Virus record (IMG/VR): IMGVR_UViG_3300011335_000211
Location: 1 to 25,822 of that record
Source: a virus
Lineage: Duplodnaviria; Caudoviricetes
DNA length: 25,822 bases
Direction: 5' to 3' (one strand)
Part shown: positions 2,922 to 25,656 of the stretch, piece after piece
Position numbering within the stretch: position 1 is the first letter of the stretch
Layout: every line of letters starts with the position of its first letter
Notes under the pieces: generated by a model
Databases searched by the model: none
The model's input: only the letters and a program-made list of their open reading frames with translations
Told to the model about the DNA's origin: nothing
Translations under genes and position numbers: made by a program

Positions 2922-5790
2922 GATACAACTAAGTACAGGCTTCCTAGATGTTAAAGAGGGTACTGCCTTCCCTTTGAATTTTCAGGTAGGAGATATCAGG
3001 GATATTAGTAAGAGACAAGGTAACTTCTCTAAGACCATTACACTCACTGGTAGCAAGAATAATAACAATCTACTTAACCACTACTATGATGTGAATATAG
3101 TGGAGGGCACCTTTAACATTAATGCTCTCACTACCTGTGCAGTTATTCAGGATGGCATCCCAATAATGGAGGAGTGCTCTATGCAGTTAACAGGGGTGGT
3201 AAAGAGTCAGCTCACAGATGGCTATGAAGAGCAGGTAACCTATGAGGTGCTTATCAAAGATAGCAAAGCAGATTTCTTTACAGCTATAGCTAACAAGGAA
3301 TTAACTGATATAGACTTCTCAGACCTTAACCACACCTATGATGCATTCAATGTGGTGGCTAGGTTTAGTAACACTGTAGCTAATGGCTTCAAATACTTTT
3401 TACCTGGATCAGGTGATGCTGTATATAACACTCAGGAATTTAAGCCTGCCATCTTTGCTAAGACTTACTTTGATAGGATTTTTGCAGATGCTGGCTTTAC
3501 TTATGACTGGCCTTCTTTGTCTTATGATAGATTTGATAAGCTATTTATCCCTTATAATGGAGGGGTGGATAACTTTGATTATAATGACTATCTAGTAAAA
3601 GCAGAAAAGACAGCAGCCACTACTATCAATGGAGTTAACAACTGGGCAGGATTTACTAACATAGCTCAAGTAGCTACCACACAATCTGCTGCCACTAAGA
3701 TTAACTTAACAGGATGGACTGAGCTAGATGATATACAAAATATATTTAACCCTATCACAGGTGTATACTCTACACCTTTTATCATAAGTTCGGCTAATGC
3801 TCAGAGCTATGATTATAGCGTTACTATGACGTATACTTTAAACCTGGTGAATACATCAGGAGGCACTTTGTATGGTAGTGCTAGTGGATCAGCAGCCAAT
3901 GTATATTACAAGCCTGCTATAGGTGTAAGTGCAGGTACGCAACCTATTATCTTTAGTAACTTATATACTAACACATCACCTACTGCTACTTTGTTAGGTG
4001 TGCAAAATGCTATACAGTGCCCTTTAACTATACCTAATGGTACTACATCTTTACTAACACAAACAGTACAGACTACAATACCACTTAGTTACAATTTACT
4101 TAATAACTTATCATCTGCTACTATAGGATTAAATGTAAGTCAACATTATGCCACTATAGGTAACGCTGCATCTGTAAGAAACTGGAGGAAAACTTCCCCA
4201 TCAGGTGTAGCTCCTGCATCAGGGCAAGTAGTTATACAGGCTGTTATCTCTTCTATACTAATTACTATTGTACCTAGCAGCACAATCTATGCAATAGGTG
4301 GTACAATAGAGGTTAATGATTACGTGCCTAAAAAGATAAAGCAGAGTGATTTCATTAAGGGCATATTCAATATGTATAATATCTATGCTCAAGTAGATAA
4401 CACCCAACCTAACAAGCTACTAATACAAAATAGGGATGCCTTCTACGATAGTGGTACTGAGGTGGACTGGACTAGTAAGCTGGCTAAAGACCAGGAGCAA
4501 AACTTATCTTTTCTCCCTGAGCTCACCTCAAAGAAAATGATATTAACATACGCTGCAGATAAGGATAACCCTAACACCACTTATACCAATGCTACTAGCA
4601 ATATATATGGACAAGCTGAGGTTATCTTTGATAATGAATATGTAAAGGAGGTAACTACTAAGCCTGTATTGTTTAGCCCTACACCTGTTATTAAAACTGT
4701 CTTTGGTGCTTATGTACCCATGATAGCAGGCTCAGCTCCTGAGACTAATATACGTATCTTATACGATAAGACTACAGCAGGACAGCCACTAGCTACCTGT
4801 GGGCAGTTTTACATCTATGACTATTTATCTGTAGGACAAATTAACCTTACAAGCTATCCTTTAGTGGGCCACTTTGATGATCCACTCACTCCTACCTTTG
4901 ATATCAATTTCGCTATCTGTGATTTTTACTATTACCAACCTTTAAACCTTACAGAAAATAATCTATACAATAGATACTGGAGGAGGACCATGGGGCAGAT
5001 AAACAACGGTAAGATGCTCACTGCTATGTTTAATCTTAAGGAGCCTGATATCCAGGCTATGAAATTAAATGATAAGATTAGGATAGATAACTCATGGTGG
5101 AATATCAATAAGATAATTGATTATGATGCCAACGCTAATAATCTTACTAAGGTAGAGCTGATCAGTATAGATACTGAGATTAACTTTACACCGTTCATGG
5201 GACCTAGTGGCCCAGTGATACCTACTCCTCCTGCAGGGATAGGCCCTATACAAATGTTAGCCATGAGTAGTGTTAATACTACTAGGATGGTTACATCTAA
5301 TGTATTTTCTAATCAGGCAACAGCAACTGTAGAGGGTAGAGGTAATGTGATAGTGGGTGGCACTAGATCAGTGATAGTAGGAGATGATCGTATCATCAGT
5401 GAGAATACTCTAGCAGCTGATAGCTTAATTGTTAGCAGTTTGAATGGAGTATCTACAGGCATAGTGCCATTAATATATATAGCTATCTTAACTCAAGCAG
5501 GGATAACAGATCCTATAGCACAGGTTAAAAATGATAGCTTAGGTGGTGTTACCTGGACTAGAACAGGGGTAGGTATTTATGAGGGATATCTAGATGCTTA
5601 CGAGCCCTTATATATATCTAGCACTAATTTGCCTACTATAATAATTAATAACGTGGCTTATGATGGGGTGGTTTCTGCTACCTACACAGTGAGCTCTAAT
5701 ACTATATCTGTAACCACCTCACAAATAGGGGTAGGCTTTGCAGATGGATACCTAACAGATACAACAATAGAAGTTAAATACTACATATAA
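2914..5790 (+). CDS. Large tail tip/baseplate-hub-like protein
   Basis: 958 aa. The N-terminus (PLNFQVGDIRDISKRQGNFSKTITL) and KLNDKIRIDNSWWNINKI resemble Bacteroidota phage tail proteins. Has a central T/S/N-rich insert and lies next to the tape measure gene. Confidence 0.7.
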   Translation: MVKIQLSTGFLDVKEGTAFPLNFQVGDIRDISKRQGNFSKTITLTGSKNNNNLLNHYYDVNIVEGTFNINALTTCAVIQDGIPIMEECSMQLTGVVKSQLTDGYEEQVTYEVLIKDSKADFFTAIANKELTDIDFSDLNHTYDAFNVVARFSNTVANGFKYFLPGSGDAVYNTQEFKPAIFAKTYFDRIFADAGFTYDWPSLSYDRFDKLFIPYNGGVDNFDYNDYLVKAEKTAATTINGVNNWAGFTNIAQVATTQSAATKINLTGWTELDDIQNIFNPITGVYSTPFIISSANAQSYDYSVTMTYTLNLVNTSGGTLYGSASGSAANVYYKPAIGVSAGTQPIIFSNLYTNTSPTATLLGVQNAIQCPLTIPNGTTSLLTQTVQTTIPLSYNLLNNLSSATIGLNVSQHYATIGNAASVRNWRKTSPSGVAPASGQVVIQAVISSILITIVPSSTIYAIGGTIEVNDYVPKKIKQSDFIKGIFNMYNIYAQVDNTQPNKLLIQNRDAFYDSGTEVDWTSKLAKDQEQNLSFLPELTSKKMILTYAADKDNPNTTYTNATSNIYGQAEVIFDNEYVKEVTTKPVLFSPTPVIKTVFGAYVPMIAGSAPETNIRILYDKTTAGQPLATCGQFYIYDYLSVGQINLTSYPLVGHFDDPLTPTFDINFAICDFYYYQPLNLTENNLYNRYWRRTMGQINNGKMLTAMFNLKEPDIQAMKLNDKIRIDNSWWNINKIIDYDANANNLTKVELISIDTEINFTPFMGPSGPVIPTPPAGIGPIQMLAMSSVNTTRMVTSNVFSNQATATVEGRGNVIVGGTRSVIVGDDRIISENTLAADSLIVSSLNGVSTGIVPLIYIAILTQAGITDPIAQVKNDSLGGVTWTRTGVGIYEGYLDAYEPLYISSTNLPTIIINNVAYDGVVSATYTVSSNTISVTTSQIGVGFADGYLTDTTIEVKYYI

Positions 5791-9317: not shown

Positions 9318-9770
9318 ATGGGAAGAAACGCTAATACAGGAGAATTTAATGTGCTTTATCCTACTAGGAGAAGGATGGCAACTATATTGAAACGCATACT
9401 TAAGAATGATATAGTAGATGGTGAAGGTACCCTAGTAGAAAGTATCAGGATCAATGCTAAGATTACAGGCTTTGAAAAATTAGAGATACAGATAGTAGCC
9501 ATGTATTACTTTATCTTTTTAAATAACGGTGCTTTCTTATGGAATGGTGGTGTAATTACTCCTAGAGATTATGTAGCACAATTTACATCTGAGCTAAACG
9601 CTGCAGGTATTACTGCTGAGATATACTCCCAATATACTGAGTGGCTTACTAAAAAATATCCACTTGTAGAAGCTATAGAAGTATTAGAAAAAAACCAAAG
9701 GATAGTTTATACATTTGAAGCACTAGATCCTCCTGCAGGATTTACACCTGGCTTCCCTCTAGATGTCTAA
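9318..9770 (+). CDS. Putative neck/tail completion protein (HK97 gp10-like)
   Basis: 150 aa, basic N-terminus, DGEGTLVESI (cf. xTGxLxxSI) and YFIFLNNG (cf. YxxFVExG) patterns. Confidence 0.5.
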   Translation: MGRNANTGEFNVLYPTRRRMATILKRILKNDIVDGEGTLVESIRINAKITGFEKLEIQIVAMYYFIFLNNGAFLWNGGVITPRDYVAQFTSELNAAGITAEIYSQYTEWLTKKYPLVEAIEVLEKNQRIVYTFEALDPPAGFTPGFPLDV

Positions 9771-10496
9771 TTCTTTTTTCATACCCATCATATTGAATAC
9801 ATAGGTAAGGGGTAGAGCTCCTATCTTATCAGACTTAGTTAGATCATTATTGCACAGGCCGTATATCATACGCTCCCAACTCCACTTACTATCTTTCTTA
9901 GCATCCTCCTCCTCTTTCAACTCCTCAGGTGTGAGCTCTGCTTTCTCTTCTGTTGTTAGCTCAGGTAACTCCTCACCTTGGAATAAGTTTTGGTAAGTCT
10001 TTAGAAAATTATCCCTGAACTTTAGGAACTCATTAATAATACCATACACATCTGTAATAGGAAGGTCTAAGAACTTATCAGCTCTGATAGTACAGTCATA
10101 TTCATACGGCTCTATTATCTCCTCACCCCACTCATTAACTTTGCTTTGCCTGTACAGTACTCCACAGATATTAGCTAGGTTAGTTATGTAGTTATGGGTA
10201 AAATAATAGTCAAGGTCTATGTACTCATATAGGCACAGTTTATTGAAGGGCTTAAGCTTCATACCTAGAAGCTCTGACTTGAATTTATTGGATGGCTGTG
10301 AGAGTGCCCATTTGCACTGGTCCACCAAAGCATTAAGCTCATCTATATCAATATCCTCAATATCCTCAGTAGGCTCATTTGTTATGATAGAAAGTATCTC
10401 ACTATTATAGTAGTAAGCACCCTGCTCTTTATCTATCTCAGATATCTCAATGAACTGCTCAAGAGTTATCTCACTCCACTGTTTCGGTAGGTACAT
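9759..10496 (-). CDS. Acidic hypothetical protein, probable tail assembly chaperone (paralogue 2)
   Basis: 245 aa. Starts LPKQWSEITLEQFIEI. The C-terminal W..MIYGLC..D....IG.LPL..VF pattern resembles gpT-like chaperone ends. Confidence 0.6.
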   Translation of the reverse strand: MYLPKQWSEITLEQFIEISEIDKEQGAYYYNSEILSIITNEPTEDIEDIDIDELNALVDQCKWALSQPSNKFKSELLGMKLKPFNKLCLYEYIDLDYYFTHNYITNLANICGVLYRQSKVNEWGEEIIEPYEYDCTIRADKFLDLPITDVYGIINEFLKFRDNFLKTYQNLFQGEELPELTTEEKAELTPEELKEEEDAKKDSKWSWERMIYGLCNNDLTKSDKIGALPLTYVFNMMGMKKELDI

Positions 10497-11037
10497 ATTC
10501 TACTGTTTCGGTAGGCACATCCTCTACTTGTTTTTTTATTTTGTTAGCAACAAACATAATGTAAGGGATGCATAACTCTGCTTTCAACTTTCTTATGTGC
10601 TTAGACTTTAACTTAAGGTGAGCTTCTGTATAGTGCTCTGCTTTGGTAAGGTGATCTGCTTTAAACATTACAGCCATCATATCTGATATGTATCCCTTCT
10701 GTTTGTGGATGGCTATCTTTTCTATTAGCTTTGTTTCTCTTACTGTTAGCTTTAACTCTGCAGTATAGGTGTAGCCATCTAGCTCTAGTGTACCTACAGG
10801 CTCAGTATTTGCCATTGGTTCCTGAGCAGAATTAAACTCTTTAACAATATCAATAAAATCTGCTATATCAAAATCAAAGAACTCACTTTCAGGGATGCCT
10901 AAAAATTCAAAGATTTGCAGATGCCTATCCACAGGGTCCAGCTCTTTATTATTGTTAATATCTGTAATTGCTTCGAACTGCTCAATAGTTAGCTCTTCAA
11001 TTCTGTTGGGGATCTCCCTTCCTAAAATAGTTACCAT
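10471..11037 (-). CDS. Acidic hypothetical protein, probable tail assembly chaperone (paralogue 1)
   Basis: 188 aa. Starts IPNRIEELTIEQFEAI, similar to the downstream gene. Preceded by a minus-strand TATATTTG box. Confidence 0.6.
   Translation of the reverse strand: MVTILGREIPNRIEELTIEQFEAITDINNNKELDPVDRHLQIFEFLGIPESEFFDFDIADFIDIVKEFNSAQEPMANTEPVGTLELDGYTYTAELKLTVRETKLIEKIAIHKQKGYISDMMAVMFKADHLTKAEHYTEAHLKLKSKHIRKLKAELCIPYIMFVANKIKKQVEDVPTETVEYVPTETVE
10474..10521. repeat. 24-bp tandem duplication
   Basis: Core ACTGTTTCGGTAGG at 10478-10491 and 10502-10515. Encodes DVPTETVE/YVPTETVE on the minus strand. Confidence 0.9.
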
Positions 11038-11048
11038 AGTTAATTTTT

Positions 11049-11082
11049 TTACAAATATAAGAATTATTATAATATAGGTATG
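11049..11082 (+). promoter_or_regulatory. Putative late promoter motif (copy 3)
   Basis: TTACA-N16-TAATATAG-GT-ATG. The 15-mer TATAATATAGGTATG is identical to the copy at 13650-13664. Confidence 0.6.
11052..11059 (-). promoter_or_regulatory. Bacteroidota-type -7 promoter box (TATATTTG) for the minus-strand gene pair
   Basis: CAAATATA on the plus strand, 14 nt upstream of the minus-strand ATG at 11037. Confidence 0.65.
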
Positions 11083-14014: not shown

Positions 14015-15301
14015 ATGGCATGGTATAATAATTTTTTTAAGAAAGAGAGCACAGGACCTGAAGTGGTGGAGGGATATCAATCTTTTAGCACCCCATTCTT
14101 ACCTGTAGGTAAAGGTGATTTATCCCTGCCCTATGTTAATGGTAGATATGCCACTAATATGTGGGTAAGATTTGGTAATGATAACCTATATCCTCAGCTA
14201 CTTAATCAAATGTACTTTTCTAGCCCATTACATGGTGCCATAGTAGACTATAAGACTAATGCAGTGATAGGTGGTGGCTTTGCTTTGGCAACTGACAAAC
14301 TTACTACTCCTGAAAAGCTACAGCTTTATATGTTTGAAAGGAAAACTAAATTAAAGCATATTGTTAAGGCTGTAACAAGGCAACTTATTGTACACAATAG
14401 AGTATATTTCAAGCTGTTTTTTGATAATGAAAAGAAATTAGTTAAGATAGAGAATGTATCACCTGAGAAAGTAAGGATATCACGTTTTAATGATATGTAT
14501 TATTTATGTGAGGACTGGAGTACTAACATAGATGTAAGACAAATAAAGCCTTATCACGTAGCATGCCCTGACTATGAGCAGTTATATTGCTATGAGATTA
14601 AATCACTAGGGCAGGATTACTATTCACTACCACAATATACCTCAGCTTTAAACTTTGCTTTCTTATCAGGCGAGCTCAGCTACTTTGCTAAGTCTAATAT
14701 ACAAAACTCTGTTTTTCCATCTTTTGCTATGATGTTTCCTAAGAGGCCACAATCTGAGGAGGAGAAACACATGATTAAAGAAACTATTGATAGAATGAAA
14801 GGGGCTGCTAATGCTGGTAAAGCTGTTGCTTTCTTTGCTAACTCACAGGATCAGTTGCCTAAGATAGAAGCCATGCCAACTAATGGTAATGATAAGTTAT
14901 TTCAGGAAGCCTCACAGCTTAATACAGAACAGATTTGTTTTGCTCACACTATAGATCCTATCTTAATGGGAGTACGTACTACAGGAAGCCTAGGAGGTGG
15001 TGCAGATATTAAGCAGGCCTATGTGATATTTGAGAAGAATGTAGTAATGGAGCTAAGAGGATGTGTTGAGCACATATTCAACGAGTTACTAACCATCTCC
15101 AAGATACCTGCTAATTTTACTATCAATAACTTTCAGGTAATAGATGAGAGCATAGTAGAGCTAGAGGGTGATGCTTCCAGGATCAACAACCTTATCAGTG
15201 CTATGCACCCAACTGTTGCTCAGAAAATACTAGATAATATGACAGTAAATGAGATACGAGCTCTAGCTGATTTACCTCCACTTAATAACACCCCTGCATA
15301 A
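14015..15301 (+). CDS. Portal protein
   Basis: 428 aa with FGNDNLYPQ, SPLHGAIV, GAANAGK, QICFAHTIDPILMG and MTVNEIRALADLPP (cf. portal T.NE.R...GL.P) patterns. Confidence 0.85.
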   Translation: MAWYNNFFKKESTGPEVVEGYQSFSTPFLPVGKGDLSLPYVNGRYATNMWVRFGNDNLYPQLLNQMYFSSPLHGAIVDYKTNAVIGGGFALATDKLTTPEKLQLYMFERKTKLKHIVKAVTRQLIVHNRVYFKLFFDNEKKLVKIENVSPEKVRISRFNDMYYLCEDWSTNIDVRQIKPYHVACPDYEQLYCYEIKSLGQDYYSLPQYTSALNFAFLSGELSYFAKSNIQNSVFPSFAMMFPKRPQSEEEKHMIKETIDRMKGAANAGKAVAFFANSQDQLPKIEAMPTNGNDKLFQEASQLNTEQICFAHTIDPILMGVRTTGSLGGGADIKQAYVIFEKNVVMELRGCVEHIFNELLTISKIPANFTINNFQVIDESIVELEGDASRINNLISAMHPTVAQKILDNMTVNEIRALADLPPLNNTPA

Positions 15302-15867
15302 TGCTATACTTCATAACAGAAACTTATCTTAAAGTTAATACTCCTATCACAGCTAATGTGGATGTTACTGATGTAACACCATACATAGCTACTCAGGCAG
15401 CCTTAAGGATACAGCCTATTTTAGGCACTACTTTCTATAACTATTTGCTTGCAGCGTACAATGCTCAGACACTTAACCCTGATGAGGTAGATTTAGTAGA
15501 GTTTATACAGCCAGTGATAGCTTGGAGATCTGCAGAGGATGCTGTTTTTGGACTTACCTACCAACTTAAGAACAAAGGACTACAAACACAATCAGGTGAC
15601 TACTCAGCTAGTGTATCTCGTAATGAGGTAGCCTTTGGGATGGAGCACTACGCACAGAAAGCTAGCTTTTTTGAGCAGAGACTTATTAGATGGTTGCTAA
15701 CTAACAGAGCACTGTTCCCTCAGTTTATATCTACCACTAACATGGATACTGATCTTAGGCCTATGTTTAATAACTGTAGCTGTATCACCCAATGGCAAAC
15801 AACTTGCACTGGTATGTGTGGCAACTTCAGAGAGAATGGATATAACAACTCTATACTTATCTTATGA
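15301..15867 (+). CDS. Probable head-tail adaptor/connector protein
   Basis: 188 aa helical protein coupled to the portal gene (TAATG). AQ..RIQPILGT.FY pattern. Confidence 0.6.
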   Translation: MLYFITETYLKVNTPITANVDVTDVTPYIATQAALRIQPILGTTFYNYLLAAYNAQTLNPDEVDLVEFIQPVIAWRSAEDAVFGLTYQLKNKGLQTQSGDYSASVSRNEVAFGMEHYAQKASFFEQRLIRWLLTNRALFPQFISTTNMDTDLRPMFNNCSCITQWQTTCTGMCGNFRENGYNNSILIL

Positions 15868-16355
15868 GACTACAGCTAGCCATCTTATTAGCCTCAATTA
15901 AACAATACATTATTCAATTATTAGCAGTAGTATCAGCTTTCTTTTTGCCTATATCAGGTATCTTATTTTTAATTGGCTTTGCTATTTTGGTGGATACTAT
16001 TACAGGGATATGGAAGGCTAAAAAATTAAAACTAAAAATTACATCACGTAGACTATCTGCTATCATATCTAAACTACTACTTTATGAGGTGGCTGTAATT
16101 GGCTTCTATCTTATAGACTTTTGGATCCTTAATGATATTATCTTAAAGTTTTTTTCAGTGCCTCTAATGCTTACAAAAATACTTAGCCTGATCCTGGTGA
16201 GCATAGAAGTGATGAGCATAAATGAAAATTACAAAGCAGTGAAAGGTATAGACATTTGGCAGGGTATGAAAAACTTATTTGCCAGGGCTAAAGAAATTAA
16301 ATCAGATCTCAATGGACTTAGACATAACCAAGATAATACAACACCGATTATCTAA
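15864..16355 (+). CDS. Holin (Phage_holin_4-like)
   Basis: Several hydrophobic segments, DTITGIWKA and EVMSINEN motifs, directly upstream of the endolysin. Confidence 0.85.
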   Translation: MRLQLAILLASIKQYIIQLLAVVSAFFLPISGILFLIGFAILVDTITGIWKAKKLKLKITSRRLSAIISKLLLYEVAVIGFYLIDFWILNDIILKFFSVPLMLTKILSLILVSIEVMSINENYKAVKGIDIWQGMKNLFARAKEIKSDLNGLRHNQDNTTPII

Positions 16356-16959
16356 AGATCAATACGTAGATGAGCTTACTGACAAGAGACAGATCTATTT
16401 GCACCATACTGCAGGTGGACCTGATGCTGTATCTGTAGCTAAATTCTTTAATCAGAAAGTAGGTAAGGTAGCCACTGCTTTTATCATAGGTTCTAAGGGT
16501 ACAATAGTACAGTGCTTCAGCTCAAAAAATTGGGCTTATCACCTGGGCCTTAAACAAGAGGTATTTAGTGAAGCAGGAGTAACTTACAGGAGCTTGGATA
16601 GATTATCTGTAGGGATAGAGATATGCAACTATGGACCACTAACTAAAAAGAACGGCTACTACTACAACTATGTAGGAGGTAAAGTAGATTATACTCAGCT
16701 TACTATCTTAGACAAGCCATACAAAGGGCACATATACTGGCAAATGTATACGGATGAACAAATAGAGAGCACTAGACAGCTTCTAGTGTACCTTTGTGAT
16801 CAGTACAATATCCCTAGAGATTACTTTGCTAGCATATTTGATATAGACAAAAGAGCTTTGAGGGGTGAGACAGGTATATTTACACACAATAGTGTGAGAA
16901 AAGATAAGAGTGACATCTATCCCTGCCCTAGAATGATAGCAATGCTAGAGAACTTATGA
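16312..16959 (+). CDS. Endolysin, N-acetylmuramoyl-L-alanine amidase (Amidase_2)
   Basis: Zn-amidase motifs IYLHHTAG, SVGIEICN and THNSVRKDKSD. ATG 16312 is preferred over TTG 16279. Confidence 0.9.
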   Translation: MDLDITKIIQHRLSKDQYVDELTDKRQIYLHHTAGGPDAVSVAKFFNQKVGKVATAFIIGSKGTIVQCFSSKNWAYHLGLKQEVFSEAGVTYRSLDRLSVGIEICNYGPLTKKNGYYYNYVGGKVDYTQLTILDKPYKGHIYWQMYTDEQIESTRQLLVYLCDQYNIPRDYFASIFDIDKRALRGETGIFTHNSVRKDKSDIYPCPRMIAMLENL

Positions 16960-17402
16960 GATACATCCTACCAATTATAGCACTATGCCTATTAGGCTCC
17001 TGCTCAAATGCTAAAAAAGCACAATACCACTACAAAAAAGCTGTTAAGTTTGGCTTGCAGTTAGTACAGGATAGCGATACTATTAGAATAATATCAGTGG
17101 ATAGCCTACCAGTGGTGGTAAATGATACTATCATATGGGAGAAGGTAATCAGAACTAAAGATACTATTATCAATTTTAAGAATATCTATGTACCTAAGAC
17201 CAGGTGGCAAACTAGAATTGAGTACAGATATAAAACGCAACTTGTAAAGCAGGATGTACTGAAATATAAGTACATATATAAAACAGAAAAAAAGCAGAAA
17301 GCCAAAACTAATTGGATGCTGTTTGTATATGGGCTAATAGCAGGATTTGTAGTAAGTTTTGTGCTCAGAATACTTGACAAACTATACAACCCCTTTAAAT
17401 AA
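16956..17402 (+). CDS. Lipoprotein with C-terminal TM helix, candidate unimolecular spanin
   Basis: Signal peptide with lipobox LLGSC and C-terminal hydrophobic WMLFVYGLIAGFVVSFVL. Coupled to the endolysin gene by ATGA overlap. Confidence 0.65.
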   Translation: MRYILPIIALCLLGSCSNAKKAQYHYKKAVKFGLQLVQDSDTIRIISVDSLPVVVNDTIIWEKVIRTKDTIINFKNIYVPKTRWQTRIEYRYKTQLVKQDVLKYKYIYKTEKKQKAKTNWMLFVYGLIAGFVVSFVLRILDKLYNPFK

Positions 17403-17406
17403 CTTT

Positions 17407-18285
17407 ATGATTAGACACTCAAAAAATGTTCATGAGCTTTCACTAGAAGGCCTTGAAGTAAGGATAGCTATGCTTAGTGATTTGCACTGGGATAACCCAC
17501 ACTGTGATAGAGATTTATTAAAGAGGCACCTAGACTATTGCTTAGAAGAGAATATACCTGTAATTATTAATGGTGATATGTTCTGCTTAATGCAGGGGAG
17601 GGGTGATAATAGGAGAAATAAATCTGATATAAGACCTGAGCACAATAATGCTATGTATTTAGACTCTATCGTCAATACAGCTGTGGAGTGGTTTATGCCC
17701 TATGCTCATATTATTAAATTAGTAGGCTATGGTAACCATGAAACTGCTATAATCAAATTTCAAGAAACTGATATCCTGCAGCGTTTTGTGGATAATATAA
17801 ATTTTAGAGCAGGATCTAATATGCAGTTAGGTGGTTATGGTGGATGGGTAGTAATTAAGCAATCTACTAGTAAAAGTAATACCACATCCTTCTCTACTAA
17901 GATTAAGTACTTCCATGGATCAGGTGGTGGTGGGGTAGTTACCAAAGGTGCTATCAATTTAACCAGGGCCTTGGAGCTTTATGAGAACTTTGATGTGTTT
18001 AGTATGGGCCACATCCATGAGAACAGTAGCAGGAATGATGTAAGAGATAAATTGGAAACACACTCAGCATCAGGATACGCTTTGAAGCAGAAACAAATAC
18101 ACCTAATGCTCACAGGTACCTATAAAGAGGAGTATGGTGATGGATCTAAAGGATGGCACGTAGAGAGAGGTGCACCCATTAAGCCATTAGGTGGTAGGAT
18201 ACTCACCATTAAATGTATAAGAGATAGTAGATCAGGAGATAAAAAAACTATAAAATATATAGATAGTCACAAATTTAATATGTAA
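17407..18285 (+). CDS. Calcineurin-like metallophosphoesterase
   Basis: All five motifs present: SDLH, NGD, GNHE, FHG, GHIH. ATG 17407, just after the upstream stop, is preferred over GTG 17359. Confidence 0.85.
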   Translation: MIRHSKNVHELSLEGLEVRIAMLSDLHWDNPHCDRDLLKRHLDYCLEENIPVIINGDMFCLMQGRGDNRRNKSDIRPEHNNAMYLDSIVNTAVEWFMPYAHIIKLVGYGNHETAIIKFQETDILQRFVDNINFRAGSNMQLGGYGGWVVIKQSTSKSNTTSFSTKIKYFHGSGGGGVVTKGAINLTRALELYENFDVFSMGHIHENSSRNDVRDKLETHSASGYALKQKQIHLMLTGTYKEEYGDGSKGWHVERGAPIKPLGGRILTIKCIRDSRSGDKKTIKYIDSHKFNM

Positions 18286-18294
18286 GTTTGCACT

Positions 18295-18366
18295 GGTTAA
18301 TACGCCCAATGTGTTACCACAACCCCTCTGCATCTTTGGTTAGTTTGGCAGGGGGGTATTTTTTTG
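18295..18366 (+). ncRNA. Candidate ~70-nt small RNA / terminator hairpin with antisense loop
   Basis: TAAGTTTG box at 18283-18290, small hairpin 18294-18319, 10-bp stem 18322-18331/18348-18357 with a 16-nt loop, then a T run. Confidence 0.5.
18322..18365 (+). terminator. Rho-independent terminator closing the late/lysis region
   Basis: ACCCCTCTGC...GCAGGGGGGT followed by ATTTTTTT. Confidence 0.7.
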
Positions 18367-18484
18367 CACAATAAACTGAGTAGGTTTAGTGAGCAATTAT
18401 ACAAAGATTTGTGACACAATTTTACTGTAAAAGCTAACCACTACCGTATATTTGCATGAATTTTTCCACTATAAAGTTGCTTAC

Positions 18485-18542
18485 AACTAACATAGTAGCT
18501 ATAATGGTGCCTTAATGTAAGATATAACTAACATATTAGCTA
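18485..18542 (+). repeat. 17-bp direct repeat AACTAACATA(G/T)TAGCTA
   Basis: Copies at 18485-18501 and 18526-18542, one mismatch. Confidence 0.8.
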
Positions 18543-18648
18543 CTTTTTGTCAAGTATATTTAAGGTTATTACCTTACTTATCATGTATAAATTCAGGCTA
18601 TTCCCTTACATTACTTATTTAGAATGATTATTGATAACGTATTTATGT

Positions 18649-18677
18649 AAACAATTAATTGTTTGTTCGTATATTTG
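18649..18677 (+). promoter_or_regulatory. Early promoter (TATATTTG) with perfect 16-bp palindromic operator candidate
   Basis: AAACAATTAATTGTTT at 18649-18664, TATATTTG at 18670-18677, ATG at 18703. Confidence 0.65.
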
Positions 18678-18702
18678 CTTCACTAATTTAAACTAACCAA
18701 TT

Positions 18703-18873
18703 ATGAACAAAGACGAAATGATTAAAATTATTTTAGCTTACGCAAACGAGCTAAATGACAACTACATTGAAAACCGGGACGCTTTCGGAATTTTAGACGA
18801 CGACACAAAACGCGCAGTTGCAAAATGGCTTGTGATTGATGAATTAATGGAACGCTTAAACTTAAAAAAATGA
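18703..18873 (+). CDS. Small hypothetical protein (56 aa), first early gene
   Basis: Manually translated MNKDEMIKIILAYANELNDNYIENRDAFG...RLNLKK. Not in the ORF track. Has a promoter and A-rich start, and ATGA overlap with the next ORF. Confidence 0.75.
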   Translation: MNKDEMIKIILAYANELNDNYIENRDAFGILDDDTKRAVAKWLVIDELMERLNLKK

Positions 18874-19007
18874 GAAAGAAACTATCCGACCTAATCTATT
18901 ACTTTACACCCCTCACTGATGAGCATAGAGACATTTTAAGCACCTCTGCTGTGTTTATATTGTTTTGGGTGGCAATCTATACATTATCTTATATTACTAA
19001 CCTTTAA
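18870..19007 (+). CDS. Small membrane protein (45 aa)
   Basis: MRKKLSDLIYYFTPLTDEHRDILSTSAVFILFWVAIYTLSYITNL, one TM helix, translationally coupled. Confidence 0.65.
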   Translation: MRKKLSDLIYYFTPLTDEHRDILSTSAVFILFWVAIYTLSYITNL

Positions 19008-19018
19008 AACGCTTTAAA

Positions 19019-19351
19019 ATGAATTTAGAAGATTTACAAGTTGAGAAGTATACAGCATCTATATGGTATGAGACTTATCATATTGAATTTATACTTGATT
19101 TTGAGTGGAGCTTTGTCTCTTTTGATCCTGAAACTAATGAGTGCATAGTAGATGTATTCCTAGTGAAAGGTGAGCAGTGGTGTAATAACGTATGCCATCC
19201 CTTCACTCCTAATAAAGATGAGCTGAAAGAAATAATAACAGCTATTGAGGATAGCATCCTAGAAGACCCTGAGAGATTTGGTGTATGCCAGTGGGAAATG
19301 GATAACAAAGAATATCAAAAAGAACTTAACAATGATAGAGATGATAGATAA
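19019..19351 (+). CDS. Acidic hypothetical protein
   Basis: 110 aa ORF in a tightly packed early cluster. Confidence 0.7.
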   Translation: MNLEDLQVEKYTASIWYETYHIEFILDFEWSFVSFDPETNECIVDVFLVKGEQWCNNVCHPFTPNKDELKEIITAIEDSILEDPERFGVCQWEMDNKEYQKELNNDRDDR

Positions 19352-19517
19352 TACAGCACCTACACCCACTCACTTTAGCCTTAAGGCAAAGATGGAGTGG
19401 TGGAAAAATAAAAAGAGTGAGGGAGATAAAGGGGGGAGCTTCAACCTACAGCTTTACTTAGACTACCTCAGCTTACAGGATCATAAACCTAAAGACCAGG
19501 CTAATGAAACGCTTTAA
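19332..19517 (+). CDS. Small hypothetical protein
   Basis: Likely start ATG 19332 or 19341 (in frame with the track ORF at 19278). Overlaps both neighbours. Confidence 0.6.
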   Translation: MIEMIDNTAPTPTHFSLKAKMEWWKNKKSEGDKGGSFNLQLYLDYLSLQDHKPKDQANETL

Positions 19518-20433: not shown

Positions 20434-20653
20434 TTTAAGAGATCACATCTTTATGGCATTAGAAAGATTATCTGATGAGGGATTAACAACAGAGCAGGTG
20501 GCTAGTGAAGTAGACAAGGCAAAAGCAATAGCTCAGCTCAGTGCTTCTATTATAGCCAGTGCTAAGGTAGAGATAGATTATATAAATGCAGTAGGATTAG
20601 TGGATAGTCAAAGTGAGCTATTCAAATCAGTTAACCCAAAACTATTACAATGA
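20411..20653 (+). CDS. Conserved helical phage protein
   Basis: NKLSDLRDHIFMALERL...KAKAIAQL pattern, a type recalled as a frequent neighbour of this HNH family. Confidence 0.7.
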   Translation: MANNKLSDLRDHIFMALERLSDEGLTTEQVASEVDKAKAIAQLSASIIASAKVEIDYINAVGLVDSQSELFKSVNPKLLQ

Positions 20654-21012
20654 CTAGACTAGAAGAGGTGCAATACATAATAGATAAATTTGATCTTAAA
20701 GAGAAATGCAGGTATATGCCTGTACTATATCGCAGATACTACCTGTATCATGTGCTCCAAAAGGATGGCATGACCTTATCTCAGATAGGTAGGTTATTTA
20801 ATCAAAGCCATGCAACAGTTATAAATGGTATGACTAAGCACACCATCTACACAAAGCAAAAGGATCCTGCTTATATGCTGCACACAAAAGAGCTCAGAGA
20901 GCAGTTTGTGCTGCCACAATACTATAAGCCCCTTAAACAGCGTGTTTTGGAGTGCTACACTATTGATAAATTAGAGAAACTTAAAGAGCAGATCAGATGC
21001 AACTATTACTAA
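20650..21012 (+). CDS. DNA-binding protein with DnaA C-terminal (domain IV)-like HTH
   Basis: TLSQIGRLFNQSHATVING resembles the DnaA signature SLxxIGxxFxRDHTTV. Confidence 0.7.
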   Translation: MTRLEEVQYIIDKFDLKEKCRYMPVLYRRYYLYHVLQKDGMTLSQIGRLFNQSHATVINGMTKHTIYTKQKDPAYMLHTKELREQFVLPQYYKPLKQRVLECYTIDKLEKLKEQIRCNYY

Positions 21013-21013
21013 C

Positions 21014-21262
21014 TGTGCAAAGTAAAAATAGAAAAAATAAGTTTGCACATAAGTTTGCACAAAAAATAGTATTGATTATCAGATACTTAATGGCAAAAGT
21101 GCAAAGTTTTGAGAAAAAGCCCCTACCCTATATATAATGTACTACCACTTGAAAAAAAAAAAGTAAAAAAAAAGTCAAACTTTGCACAAAGCCACGCCAG
21201 TACTAGGGGAAGGTGTGCAAAGTGGGGTGCAAAGTTGATTGTTAATAAAAAAAGATTGCACA
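21014..21262. repeat. Iteron-like repeat array, probable replication origin
   Basis: GTGCAAA(G/C)T copies on both strands near 21015, 21040, 21052, 21099, 21179, 21215 and 21227, plus a degenerate copy near 21255. Long A tracts at 21152-21173. Upstream of the primase-helicase. Confidence 0.75.
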
Positions 21263-21263
21263 T

Positions 21264-21296
21264 TTTGTATCAGTATTGAATTAATTAATATATTTG
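21264..21296 (+). promoter_or_regulatory. Bacteroidota-type promoter for the replication operon
   Basis: TTTG (21264-21267)-N21-TATATTTG (21289-21296), matching the -33/-7 consensus. Confidence 0.7.
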
Positions 21297-21300
21297 TCAA

Positions 21301-21387
21301 GATAATCACCCTGATTAACAAAACATTTTGAGAGTATAAACCCCTGCCATCTTATCATAGGGTGATTTATCGGCAGGGGCTCTCTTT
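21301..21387 (+). promoter_or_regulatory. Structured 5' leader of the primase-helicase gene
   Basis: Stem CCCCTGCC/GGCAGGGG (21341-21348/21372-21379). Its loop is complementary to 21301-21315. Confidence 0.6.
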
Positions 21388-21401
21388 AATATAGGAAAAA
21401 T

Positions 21402-23750
21402 ATGAACTTAATTGACTATGCTAATGAGCTCCAAAGTGAAGGACTTAACCCTCTACCACTTAAAGATAATAAAGCCCCAATGCTTGAAGCAGGGCATAAG
21501 TTTTTATATGAGCCTATTGATAATATAGAAAGTAGATTTTCTAATGCTCAAAAAATAGGTATAGCCTGTGGATTAGTTAGTGAATTTTACTGTATCGATT
21601 TTGATGCTCATAATGATGAGGATATAAGTGAGATATATAATGATTTTATAGCTGTACCTTCTGTAGCTAATATGATATTTGAGGGTATGCTATCCTGTTA
21701 CTCTACTGCAGGAGGTGGATATCATGTATATTTTAGAAGTAAGGATAAGATTAACGGCCAGGTGTTCTCTAAATATAGCACAGGATCTACAATGGTAGAG
21801 CTTCGAGGCAATGGGCAGTATGCTGCCTGCTATCCATCTACAGGATATACTAAGGTAAAAGGTGATGAGTACATTAAGTTAAGCTATTTTGAGGATGATA
21901 TAAATAACCTATTTGATCTAATCAAATCATATAACCAACATCACTCTATTACTTTACCTCATAAAAATACTACAGATAAAAAATGGGCAGAGACATGGAA
22001 AGATACTACTCCTGATGGAAAGTATAACCTAGAAGGTGAAGAGGAGGCTAAGGAGCTGCTTAAGAAAATAGGGTGGCAGTTTTGTAAGAAGAGAGCTGAT
22101 GGATCAGAGTACTGGACCAGGCCTAACAAAGATATAAAAGATGGTTTCTCAGCTACTTTCGGACATCAAAAGAGTATGTTCTATATCTTTAGTGAAGATG
22201 GTAGCTCTATTGAGCCCTTTAGTAGTAAACAAAGCTATTCACCATTTAACATATACACCTTAGTTAATCACCAGGGAGATTGGAAAAAAGCTAAGGATGA
22301 ATTGAAATTAAGGTATAATATGCCTGATGATGACTTTTGGAGTACTACACAAAATGGAGCTTACAATTTAAACAATTTAAGGTTTAAGAAGTTCTTAGAT
22401 AATCATGACTTTTTTAAGAATAGCCCTGAGCCTAATGGCACATTTCAGATGATTAAAAAGGAAGGTATATTTTTAAACCAAGTATTTGAGAAAGATGTGA
22501 AAGATTACGTATTAGATTACATCTTAGATAATAAGAAACCTGAGGGAGTATATAACCTGATGAGTGGTAACCTTAAGTTTTTTAAGAGGGAGTTTTTAGG
22601 TATATTGAGTAGCAGAGATATATCCCTACTAAAAGATACTAAAGATTGTGCCTACTTATTTTATACAAATTGCATAGTTAAGGTTACTAAAGATGATAAA
22701 GAGGTGCTATCTTATGCCGATATGGATCTATCTATATGGAGAGACCAGGTAATAGATAGAGATTTTGTAAAAGTAGATCACCACAAATCAGAATTTCGCA
22801 CTTTTATATGGAATATTTCAGGCAAAGATAGAGATAAGTACAAAGCATTTCAGACTGTTATAGGTTACCTCCTGCACAGTTATAAGGATAGAAGTAATAA
22901 CAAAGCAATTATCTTTAATGATGAGGCAATATCTGATGTACCTAATGGTAGAAGTGGTAAAGGTTTATTTTGGAATGCAATGGGCCATCTTAAGAAGGTG
23001 CAGAGCTTAGATGGTAAGACCTTTGATTTTCTTAATAAGTTCCCTTATCAAAATGTATCTACTGCCTGTCAGATATTAGTATTTGATGATGTAAAAAAGA
23101 AGTTTAATTTTGAGAGCTTATTTAGTGTGATCACTGAGGGTATCACCATTGAGTACAAAGGTAAGGACAGTATAAAGCTAGATGTAACTAACAGCCCTAA
23201 GATTATCATCACAACTAACTACACCATCTCAGGTAACAGTGCATCCTTTAATGCTCGAAAGTATGAAGTAGAGATGGCTAATACCTTTAGTGATAAGTAT
23301 ACTCCTGTAGATCTATTTGGCCATGAGCTCTTTAATGATTGGGATGATCAGGAATGGGCCTGCTTTGATAACTACTGCCAGGAGTGTATACAAATATATC
23401 TTAATAAAGGGCTTATACCTATGCCTACTAAGAATTTAGAATATAGAAAGATATTAGATGATATTAGCAGTGAGATGTATTTCTTTTTTGAGGATCTCAA
23501 AGCTGATACTTTCTACTCAGTTAAAGAGGAGCTCTTTGATAGCTTTAATAATCGCTTCCCTGAGAAGAGGAGCTATACTACTCAGAATAAGATAACTATA
23601 AATTTTAGGAAGTGGTGCGAATATAAAGGGTATACTCCTGATGATAATAGGAATGGTGGCAGCACTAAGCTATCCTACAGCTTACAGGAAAAAATAGAAG
23701 AGGAAGAGGATATATGGGATGGTATAAATAGAACAGCAAATAAAATATAA
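21402..23750 (+). CDS. Bifunctional primase-polymerase (Prim-Pol/AEP) fused to P-loop helicase
   Basis: AEP motifs CIDFD and STAGGGYHVYF. Walker A GRSGKG, Walker B ILVFDD, motif C IITTN (SF3-like). Confidence 0.9.
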   Translation: MNLIDYANELQSEGLNPLPLKDNKAPMLEAGHKFLYEPIDNIESRFSNAQKIGIACGLVSEFYCIDFDAHNDEDISEIYNDFIAVPSVANMIFEGMLSCYSTAGGGYHVYFRSKDKINGQVFSKYSTGSTMVELRGNGQYAACYPSTGYTKVKGDEYIKLSYFEDDINNLFDLIKSYNQHHSITLPHKNTTDKKWAETWKDTTPDGKYNLEGEEEAKELLKKIGWQFCKKRADGSEYWTRPNKDIKDGFSATFGHQKSMFYIFSEDGSSIEPFSSKQSYSPFNIYTLVNHQGDWKKAKDELKLRYNMPDDDFWSTTQNGAYNLNNLRFKKFLDNHDFFKNSPEPNGTFQMIKKEGIFLNQVFEKDVKDYVLDYILDNKKPEGVYNLMSGNLKFFKREFLGILSSRDISLLKDTKDCAYLFYTNCIVKVTKDDKEVLSYADMDLSIWRDQVIDRDFVKVDHHKSEFRTFIWNISGKDRDKYKAFQTVIGYLLHSYKDRSNNKAIIFNDEAISDVPNGRSGKGLFWNAMGHLKKVQSLDGKTFDFLNKFPYQNVSTACQILVFDDVKKKFNFESLFSVITEGITIEYKGKDSIKLDVTNSPKIIITTNYTISGNSASFNARKYEVEMANTFSDKYTPVDLFGHELFNDWDDQEWACFDNYCQECIQIYLNKGLIPMPTKNLEYRKILDDISSEMYFFFEDLKADTFYSVKEELFDSFNNRFPEKRSYTTQNKITINFRKWCEYKGYTPDDNRNGGSTKLSYSLQEKIEEEEDIWDGINRTANKI

Positions 23751-25074: not shown

Positions 25075-25082
25075 TATATTTG
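25075..25082 (+). promoter_or_regulatory. Bacteroidota-type -7 box for the recombination operon
   Basis: TATATTTG 22 nt upstream of ATG 25105. Confidence 0.65.
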
Positions 25083-25104
25083 TAAACAATTAATAAACTA
25101 ACCA

Positions 25105-25656
25105 ATGGAAAAAACAACTACAAGGGCTGTAAAGCCTAAGGAGGTTGAGCAGCAGCCTGCTCCCTTCTATGTGAGGCTTCACCAAGCTAAACAACTAATC
25201 GGTAAAGTACATAAGAACGCTACTAACCCCCACTTCAAGAAGTCCTATGCAGATATCAATTCTATCCTAGAGACTGTAGAGCCTATCTTATTACAGCATG
25301 ATCTGTTATTACTACAGCCTATAGAGGGTGGTAGTGTGTGCACTCAGATAGTATGCATATACACTGGATTTAGTATCTCTAGCTGTATGACTTTAGATCT
25401 TAGCTTAGATGCACAGAAGCAGGGCTCACAGATCAGCTACTTTCGTAGGTACACTATACAGAGCTTACTTACTTTACAAGCTACAGATGATGATGGGCAT
25501 ATAGCAGCAACTGCTAAGCCTAAGATGGATGCAAAGAGATTTGCTGAGGCTGTTAAAGCTATAGCTGATGGTAAGTATACTGTAGAGAAGTTAAAGGATA
25601 GCTTTGATCTTAATGATACTCAGATTAATTCACTCCTACTAATACCTATGATATGA
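25105..25656 (+). CDS. erf: ERF-family single-strand annealing protein
   Basis: KNATNPHFKKSYADINSI and GSQISYFRRYTIQSLL...DDDG signature. Confidence 0.9.
   Translation: MEKTTTRAVKPKEVEQQPAPFYVRLHQAKQLIGKVHKNATNPHFKKSYADINSILETVEPILLQHDLLLLQPIEGGSVCTQIVCIYTGFSISSCMTLDLSLDAQKQGSQISYFRRYTIQSLLTLQATDDDGHIAATAKPKMDAKRFAEAVKAIADGKYTVEKLKDSFDLNDTQINSLLLIPMI

Follow-up and report, generated by a model that had tools for sequence, protein, structure and literature searches.

A hairpin element at 18283-18365 of an uncultured phage genome likely encodes, as judged from its sequence, an antisense small RNA of ~70 nt: behind a promoter-type box lie two hairpins, of which the second is a terminator with a 16-nt loop. 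We give about an even chance to the reading that this RNA acts in trans, is also carried on the 3' ends of the upstream transcripts, and serves as a timing switch by keeping early and recombination genes from being translated. A bolder formulation, for which we would put the chances a little under even, is that the terminator of the late block doubles as a trans antisense RNA silencing a portable start module of early and recombination genes; it would then do as an RNA what the RegA protein does in T4, and no phage small-RNA circuit would have been described before it in a phylum without Shine-Dalgarno pairing or Hfq.

The window, that is, the whole stretch of DNA that was analyzed (25,822 bases), is the entire record for this phage genome. 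Upstream of the element are genes for the large terminase subunit (105-1253), the portal (14015-15301), and a holin-like protein and amidase (15864-16959). The last gene of this upstream block (17359..18285, plus strand) encodes a metallophosphatase, or DNA-repair-exonuclease-like protein (PHROG 7339, E = 2.7e-17), which scores 21.1 bits against Pfam Metallophos, slightly below the 21.5 cut-off. Small open reading frames (ORFs) run from 18703 onward, together with two HNH endonucleases, and are accompanied by a primase-polymerase (21402-23750) and by erf, an ERF-family recombinase (25105-25656, plus strand; Pfam ERF, E = 1.7e-16). A protein with a weak match to the DnaA C-terminal helix-turn-helix is encoded at 20650-21012. 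A tRNA/tmRNA scan of the window returned none.

The family is apparently an uncultured, lytic one of Bacteroidota type. No cultured phage is close: a blastn search of 17900-19400 against 50,697 phage records gave no match, and, judged by the portal protein, the closest is Nonlabens phage P12024S/L, with 23% identity. The five near-complete relatives yielded no tyrosine or serine recombinase (integrase or resolvase). The loop and 3' arm of the hairpin gave 0 matches in 185,579 species genomes, so these offer neither a prophage copy nor a clue to the host.

The hairpin element and its conservation

The element begins with the box TAAGTTTG (18283..18290, plus strand), a -7 type sequence (TAnnTTTG) that we predict to be the small-RNA promoter; the TAA stop of the phosphatase gene is the first three bases of this box. 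The predicted RNA occupies 18295..18365 (plus strand; covariance model 90.7 bits), starting 4-5 nt past the box and ending in a T run. Its predicted first base opens hairpin 1, which was taken from the fold (18295..18318, plus strand). Hairpin 2 (18322..18357, plus strand) is an intrinsic-terminator stem in which CCCCTCTGC (18323-18331) pairs with GCAGGGGGG (18348-18356), giving nine pairs, one of them T-G, with A18322-T18357 as a possible tenth. Its 16-nt loop (18332-18347) holds the seed TTGGTTAGTTT (18336..18346, plus strand) inside an invariant core, CTTTGGTTAGTTT (18334-18346). The terminator T run of seven T (18359..18365, plus strand) is conserved in the alignment. The box, the T run, and the 16-nt loop with its seed had been described in an earlier note on this DNA, and every position given there is correct.

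Hairpin 2 thus has what an intrinsic terminator has, a GC-rich stem of 9-10 pairs and then seven T. A simple terminator has a short (3-8 nt), sequence-free loop, whereas this loop is 16 nt long and its core does not vary; a consensus terminator scan with loops of 3-8 nt does not list it. We take the loop start, UUUGG, to fit the YUNR U-turn pattern of many antisense loops. The earlier note had suggested an Rfam scan, and no family matched the element: cmscan of 17500-19500 with all 4227 families, at E values up to 10, gave seven weak matches, none over 18283-18366. The c4 model is included in Rfam. A reverse ORF of 40 aa (18297-18419) was considered and dropped, as the DNA 3' of the terminator is not conserved. 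As a side observation, TTTGCAC boxes occur at 18287 and 18363, one on each side of the hairpin element. Counting against the promoter reading of the box, 11 bases of the window's box region, TAAGTTTGCAC, recur twice at 21038-21060, within repeats resembling DNA-binding sites.

In the window itself, the fold of 18283-18370 (-27.6 kcal/mol, z = -2.0) only modestly beats shuffled sequence, with 9 of 200 shuffles equally good, and the case therefore rests on the relatives. The neighboring phosphatase gene matches ~980 IMG/VR stretches, and 593 of the 599 examined encode a relative of its product; the best 80 of the ~980 matches were retrieved as relatives' loci. The exact 34-nt hairpin is found in 22 stretches, and the alignment comprises 34 distinct versions of the element.

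Throughout these 34 versions the loop core is invariant (34/34), and 100% of the terminator stem cells are paired. Both sides have changed at 3 of the 10 pairs, for example from G-C to A-U in seven sequences, and the stem covariation score is 0.281, against 0.167 in shuffles (0/500 as high) and at most 0.095 with slid partners. Both hairpins fold in all 28 distinct sequences; the position of hairpin 1 is occupied by at least six different sequences, yet a hairpin forms there in 28 of 28 distinct relatives. The conserved structure is accordingly backed by compensating changes and joined to an intrinsic terminator, as expected of a small RNA. To this extent the reading of the earlier note is supported: the hairpin is conserved and structured, with an invariant loop and a box of Bacteroidota promoter type at a fixed distance.

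Variants of the loop were sought in IMG/VR and in metagenome contigs with a search anchored on the stem that left the 18-nt loop free. Family members made up 49 of the 55 IMG/VR matches and 24 of the 49 metagenome matches, and all of them (49/49 and 24/24) carry the same loop core, so that no loop variant was found in either set; the two counts are not independent, since many JGI contigs duplicate IMG/VR records. In the loop-less clades the phosphatase gene is followed either by a plain tetraloop terminator or by no hairpin at all. A covariance model, R1, was run on 36 sources, which comprised the window, truncated loci, and clades B and C; only the window's own copy was significant, the second-best score being 19.8 bits (E = 0.25), and the model found no homologue in the loop-less clades. 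Part of the hairpin's conservation needs no small RNA, because it is the sole terminator between the upstream block and the early genes.

All 34 distinct relatives retain a TAnnTTT(G/A) box at constant spacing to hairpin 1, as TAAGTTTG in 14, TATATTTG in 12, TAATTTTG in 7, and TAATTTTA in 1. It overlaps the TAA stop in 22 of them. In the other 12 the stop sits 13 nt upstream and there is a separate, perfect TATATTTG at equal spacing to hairpin 1; this recreation of the box downstream of the stop argues that the box itself is under selection.

The Bacteroidota -7 element is given as TAnnTTTG, with a refined consensus of TAHHTTTG, and Flavobacterium johnsoniae transcripts begin 4-5 nt past the box (PMC6847099). 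By that rule the RNA would start at 18295/18296, which is the first base of hairpin 1. The window's TAAGTTTG has a G at -9 and so departs from the refined consensus, which the boxes of 19 of the 34 relatives fit; G at -9 is almost absent among 241 probable F. johnsoniae promoters (PMC6847099).

Among metatranscriptome runs, only two, both belonging to a single study, contain 6-7% of the sampled words. Relatives' short contigs span 18323-18367, with the gene end and the early promoter on separate contigs. Such contigs give no ends, strand, or level, and the libraries may hold DNA; higher contig depth over the hairpin is in any case expected, since this stretch is common to many strains.

The complementary motif at gene starts

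The reverse complement of the loop seed, AAACTAACCAA, stands at two gene starts, each behind a TATATTTG box, as the earlier note had reported. Target 1 (18690..18700, plus strand) lies in a leader of ~21 nt and stops 2 nt short of ATG 18703, the start codon of the first early gene, which encodes 56 aa; the early promoter box (18670..18677, plus strand), with a predicted transcript start near 18682, is conserved in relatives. Target 2 (25095..25105, plus strand) shares its last A with the erf ATG and follows a box (25075..25082, plus strand) that is conserved in 80 erf loci. In all, intergenic TATATTTG boxes, which fit the Bacteroidota -7 element, are found on the plus strand at 18447, 18670, 21289, and 25075 and on the minus strand at 11052. 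A palindrome, AAACAATTAATTGTTT, is also present at 18649-18664, with a half-site at 25084.

The enrichment that the earlier note proposed to check is clear for exact copies. Over both strands the 11-mer has three exact sites, against a mean of 0.02 in 100 dinucleotide shuffles, none of which reaches three; allowing one mismatch adds no further site, the expectation then being 0.85, and three or more occur in 5 of 100 shuffles. The partial matches listed in that note at 18433, 18485, and 18526 are present (CTAACCA at 18434, AACTAAC at 18485 and 18526, the latter two belonging to a 20-nt direct repeat). They lie outside any start region, and the model does not need them.

Among distinct contexts with at least 700 nt of downstream sequence, target 1 is exact in 48 of 50, within 1000 nt downstream of the element. 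One relative (L163) has a variant matching 10 of 11 bases, and in another (L167) an inserted reverse-strand gene pushes the early region out of range. The register of motif to ATG is -1, 0, +1, or +2 in 47 of the 48 contexts, the remaining one having no nearby ATG. The gene that follows differs among relatives, and the gap between motif and promoter box is 12-25 nt, or there is no box. A function coupled to the start codon, with the distance to the promoter left free, fits a role at the RNA level. A Kozak-like positional element was dropped from consideration because the register varies.

Each of the five near-complete relatives has one copy of the loop and exactly two exact sense sites, both at start codons and behind promoter-type boxes. 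The second of these lies 3-8 kb away in 5/5, at the start of an Erf-type gene in four (two Erf types) and of another gene in one. A conserved seed is thus matched by conserved complementary sites, as expected of a base-pairing small RNA encoded in trans.

The erf site varies. In 80 erf loci it is exact in 41 and matches 10 of 11 bases in 18 more, with ACTAACC kept in 79; in the inexact sites the 5' end reads TAAC or CAAC, or an extra C has been inserted. These variants are uncompensated, since the loop core is identical in all 24 contigs that hold both the element and erf, and there is no covariation between loop and target because the loop never varies. As to the start-region pairing put forward in the earlier note, the motif's position is supported (48/50 at the early-gene start, 5/5 at a second start); compensating change at the erf site does not appear.

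Loop and motif come and go together. Of the 62 loci whose downstream sequence is long enough, 35 carry both and 27 lack both; a lone loop or a lone motif is never seen. Loop-bearing relatives show 76-91% identity in the neighboring protein and loop-less ones at most 75%, so the co-occurrence follows a single clade split and counts for roughly one evolutionary event.

By calculated energy, the target sites rank first and third among plus-strand duplexes with the loop, target 1 being the best at -17.1 kcal/mol; the second-ranked duplex is at an internal site near 4470 and is rich in G-U pairs. Duplexes of the two leaders with the loop have energies of -14.7 and -14.3 kcal/mol, and opening the loop costs 1.55 kcal/mol, as against 0.67 and 0.22 kcal/mol for opening the leaders. 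At target 1 the complementarity runs over the AUG (16 nt, 88%, two mismatches). Cofolding of the RNA with the leaders was left out, as it cannot represent loop-to-strand pairing.

A proposed timing switch and its rivals

We propose that an RNA of ~70 nt (18295-18365) is made from its own predicted box and that its loop pairs with leaders and start codons, at 18690-18705 for the first early gene and 25095-25107 for erf. The paired loop would occupy leaders of ~20 nt and so block ribosome binding or initiation. Flavobacterium does not use Shine-Dalgarno pairing to initiate translation and instead relies on a start region that is A-rich and free of structure (PMC6847099); a duplex there would plausibly block initiation. 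Because the same hairpin also ends the structural, lysis, and phosphatase block, every transcript of that block would have the loop as its 3' terminus; anti-early RNA would then accumulate in the course of infection, giving a timing switch that shuts off early and recombination proteins.

We infer that transcription starts from the box, that the RNA pairs in vivo, that it represses and does not activate, and that it serves in timing. Repression is assumed solely because the leaders are unstructured. The earlier note had left timing and immunity as options; with no recombinase in the five near-complete relatives and no copy in the species genomes searched, timing is favored and immunity is unlikely.

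A different function for the leader motif is one alternative, which we think unlikely: it may mainly be a preferred translation-start or cassette-boundary module, the small RNA being real and acting otherwise. The RNA might then have its pairing partners among host transcripts, act by titrating a factor, or be there to protect or activate early messages. The motif does recur at successive gene starts (two in relative L001, three in L303), accompanies unrelated genes as a portable module would, and is A-rich like the start regions favored in Bacteroidota (PMC6847099). The leaders are already unstructured, which leaves no evident anti-structure role, with end protection possible. Against this, the register of motif to ATG shifts over four positions, whereas the known determinants are position-specific (A at -3, -6, -12, and -13; PMC6847099), and such a module leaves the frozen exact complement in the loop, and its joint gain and loss with the motif, unexplained. 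A distinctly unlikely reading makes the hairpin merely a terminator and the 11-mer a duplex-DNA site of a phage regulator, present at two early promoters and inverted in the terminator. At about +9 to +19 of two promoters the motif would be in the classical position of an operator, and the intergenic region is full of elements resembling protein sites (the AAACAATTAATTGTTT palindrome, the TTTGCAC boxes). A DNA site, however, need not sit in the loop of a stem with compensating changes, and its spacing to the promoter box is 12-25 nt, or there is no box, whereas that to the ATG is fixed within 3 nt; moreover, a loop of 16 nt is unusual for a simple terminator, and related clades use a plain tetraloop.

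Pairing in cis has, in our estimate, a slim chance. On this view, transcripts that run past the terminator would have their first early gene silenced by pairing between the loop and the early leader, ~340 nt further downstream. Loop and target 1 always share a strand, lie 100-650 nt apart, and are found as an inverted repeat (16 nt, 88% complementary); yet in the five near-complete relatives the second exact site lies kilobases off (3-8 kb) behind its own promoter box, a strong GC stem and T run should leave little read-through, and the conserved box before hairpin 1 would be superfluous. That a conserved terminator loop and a conserved leader coincide with no functional link is very improbable. 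The test was post hoc, the finding having been picked after the sequence was read, and covariation is absent; but 0/100 shuffles yield three exact sites, two frozen elements are exactly complementary over 11 nt with both targets at start codons, and co-occurrence is perfect (35/0/0/27).

Comparison with known systems

P1/P7 c4 RNA exposes in its loops complements that pair with the ribosome-binding region of a phage message and block its translation (PMC12197685); the proposed RNA of the element shares with it the phage origin and a target message elsewhere on the same strand. The element differs from c4 in having no Rfam match, in belonging to another host phylum, one without Shine-Dalgarno pairing, in carrying one seed in the terminator loop where c4 has two loop segments, and in its proposed targets, early and recombination genes as against an antirepressor. 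c4 is excised from the very transcript that also carries its target. A recombinase search of the five near-complete relatives of the present phage found no lysogeny genes.

P4 CI RNA turns off early expression by pairing, through an exposed sequence, with complementary sites that recur in phage transcripts; it causes premature transcription termination and confers prophage immunity. The element's sites are instead at start codons, in a phage family in which no integrase was found. What the element appears to have of the c4/CI mode, on its sequence, is a loop-exposed complement aimed at phage start regions in trans.

In function a protein offers a parallel. T4 RegA, of a lytic phage, occupies the start regions of many early messages and thereby turns them off late in infection; the job proposed here is the same, with an RNA loop, not a protein, as the proposed effector. 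P22 sar and lambda OOP are short phage RNAs, each with a promoter and a terminator of its own, and pairing is the means by which they reduce the expression of a phage regulator (PMC12197685). Both are cis-encoded on the opposite strand and fully complementary, whereas the element would be trans-encoded with a seed of 11-16 nt.

Small RNAs from operon 3' ends and those of Bacteroides thetaiotaomicron (PMC7366714) resemble the element in that a terminator hairpin doubles as the body of the regulator. A likeness to Bacteroidota small RNAs would also lie in acting without Hfq, through exposed single-stranded seeds at start regions. They differ in being cellular, none is known to be related in sequence, and the element's seed sits in the terminator loop. 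To our knowledge, phage regulatory RNAs come almost only from temperate phages of Proteobacteria and Firmicutes, and among the papers listed by full-text literature searches there was no described phage small RNA of Bacteroidota.

The proposed circuit is compact and testable, with one 70-nt RNA, an 11-nt seed, and two or three start regions, in a phage family represented by environmental contigs in the hundreds. From it one could learn how bacteria that initiate without Shine-Dalgarno pairing turn translation off, and the pair of seed and leader could serve Flavobacterium genetics as a small orthogonal control part. On this analysis we rate the element as a putative variant of the antisense RNAs of the P1 c4 and P4 CI kind, in a phylum without Shine-Dalgarno pairing and not linked to lysogeny.

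Complements of the loop and copies of the leader motif in relatives

In many relatives (e.g., L007, L009-L011, L014, L015, and L036), the second early gene starts ATGAGAAAGAAACTAACCGACC. Codons 4-7 of the gene are here a near-complement of the loop of the small-RNA element, the two-hairpin unit and predicted source of an antisense RNA at 18283-18365 on the plus strand, matching at 10 of 11 bases, and the odd base is able to form a G-U pair with the loop. The window counterpart of this near-complement (18879-18889) has decayed to AAACTATCCGA. In addition, two or three consecutive gene starts in L303, L001, and L033 carry either the leader motif, that is, the exact complement of the loop seed, or its one-base variant AAACTAACCTATG. 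Such repetition at successive gene starts suggests that the motif travels with gene cassettes.

Other hairpin elements

In L063, a relative from the clade that lacks the loop, a different mini-unit occupies the same position (3420-3510), 3' of the plain terminator. It consists of a TATATTTG box, ~45 nt of spacing, and a GCCCCAT...ATGGGGT hairpin followed by a run of T, and may be another small RNA. An unrelated hairpin is common to 23 metagenome contigs (loci within L264-L310), several of them labelled human gut, and reads CCCCTCTG, CCCGGCTCCGGCCTGGGG, CAGGGGGG, and then a T run. It was retrieved through the stem pattern of the small-RNA element and is a separate conserved element.

The primase leader and a possible replication origin

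The primase-polymerase gene (21402-23750) has a leader of ~105 nt behind a TATATTTG box (box and leader together span 21289-21401). The leader contains a GC hairpin with a 23-nt loop and a stem formed by CCCCTGCC (21341-21348) and GGCAGGGG (21372-21379), and the hairpin's 5' arm and the start of its loop are similar to the small-RNA terminator (16.6 bits, E = 1.4, with the covariance model of the element). AGGGTGA near 21359 is also complementary to TCACCCT near 21306. The primase leader is thus a possible structured element with a regulatory role.

Between the primase gene and the open reading frame (ORF) at 20650-21012, TTTGCAC(A) occurs seven times, in direct and inverted orientation, within ~210 bp (21021-21233), including the tandem TAAGTTTGCACA TAAGTTTGCACA at 21038-21061. 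The ORF, directly upstream of the cluster, weakly matches the DnaA C-terminal helix-turn-helix, at 24.7 bits against a cut-off of 31.5. Together the two may represent an origin of replication and the protein that binds it. A further pair of TTTGCAC boxes, at 18287 and 18363, stand one on either side of the small-RNA element.

Additional boxes and a possible early operator

Two minus-strand genes of 245 and 188 aa (9759-11037), preceded by a TATATTTG box at 11052, lie between the tail genes and the capsid genes and have no match in PHROGs or Pfam. Ahead of the early promoter there is a second TATATTTG box at 18447, with flanks (CGTATATTTGC) identical to those of the early promoter. No ORF of at least 40 aa lies behind this box, which is followed by 20-nt direct repeats that are 90% alike (18482-18501 and 18523-18542) and by two 13-nt repeats (at 18569 and 18606). 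The stretch as a whole (18447-18669) may serve as a second, tandem promoter of the early genes, or it may be a further non-coding unit.

A perfect palindrome, AAACAATTAATTGTTT (18649-18664), is found immediately upstream of the early -7 box (18670-18677), and a half-site, AAACAATTAAT (25084-25094), immediately downstream of the erf -7 box (25075-25082). Versions of these are present in most relatives among the early-leader contexts and erf loci compared. Palindrome and half-site look like an operator for a dimeric regulator, which, if the palindrome does serve in this way, would constitute a second layer of early control.
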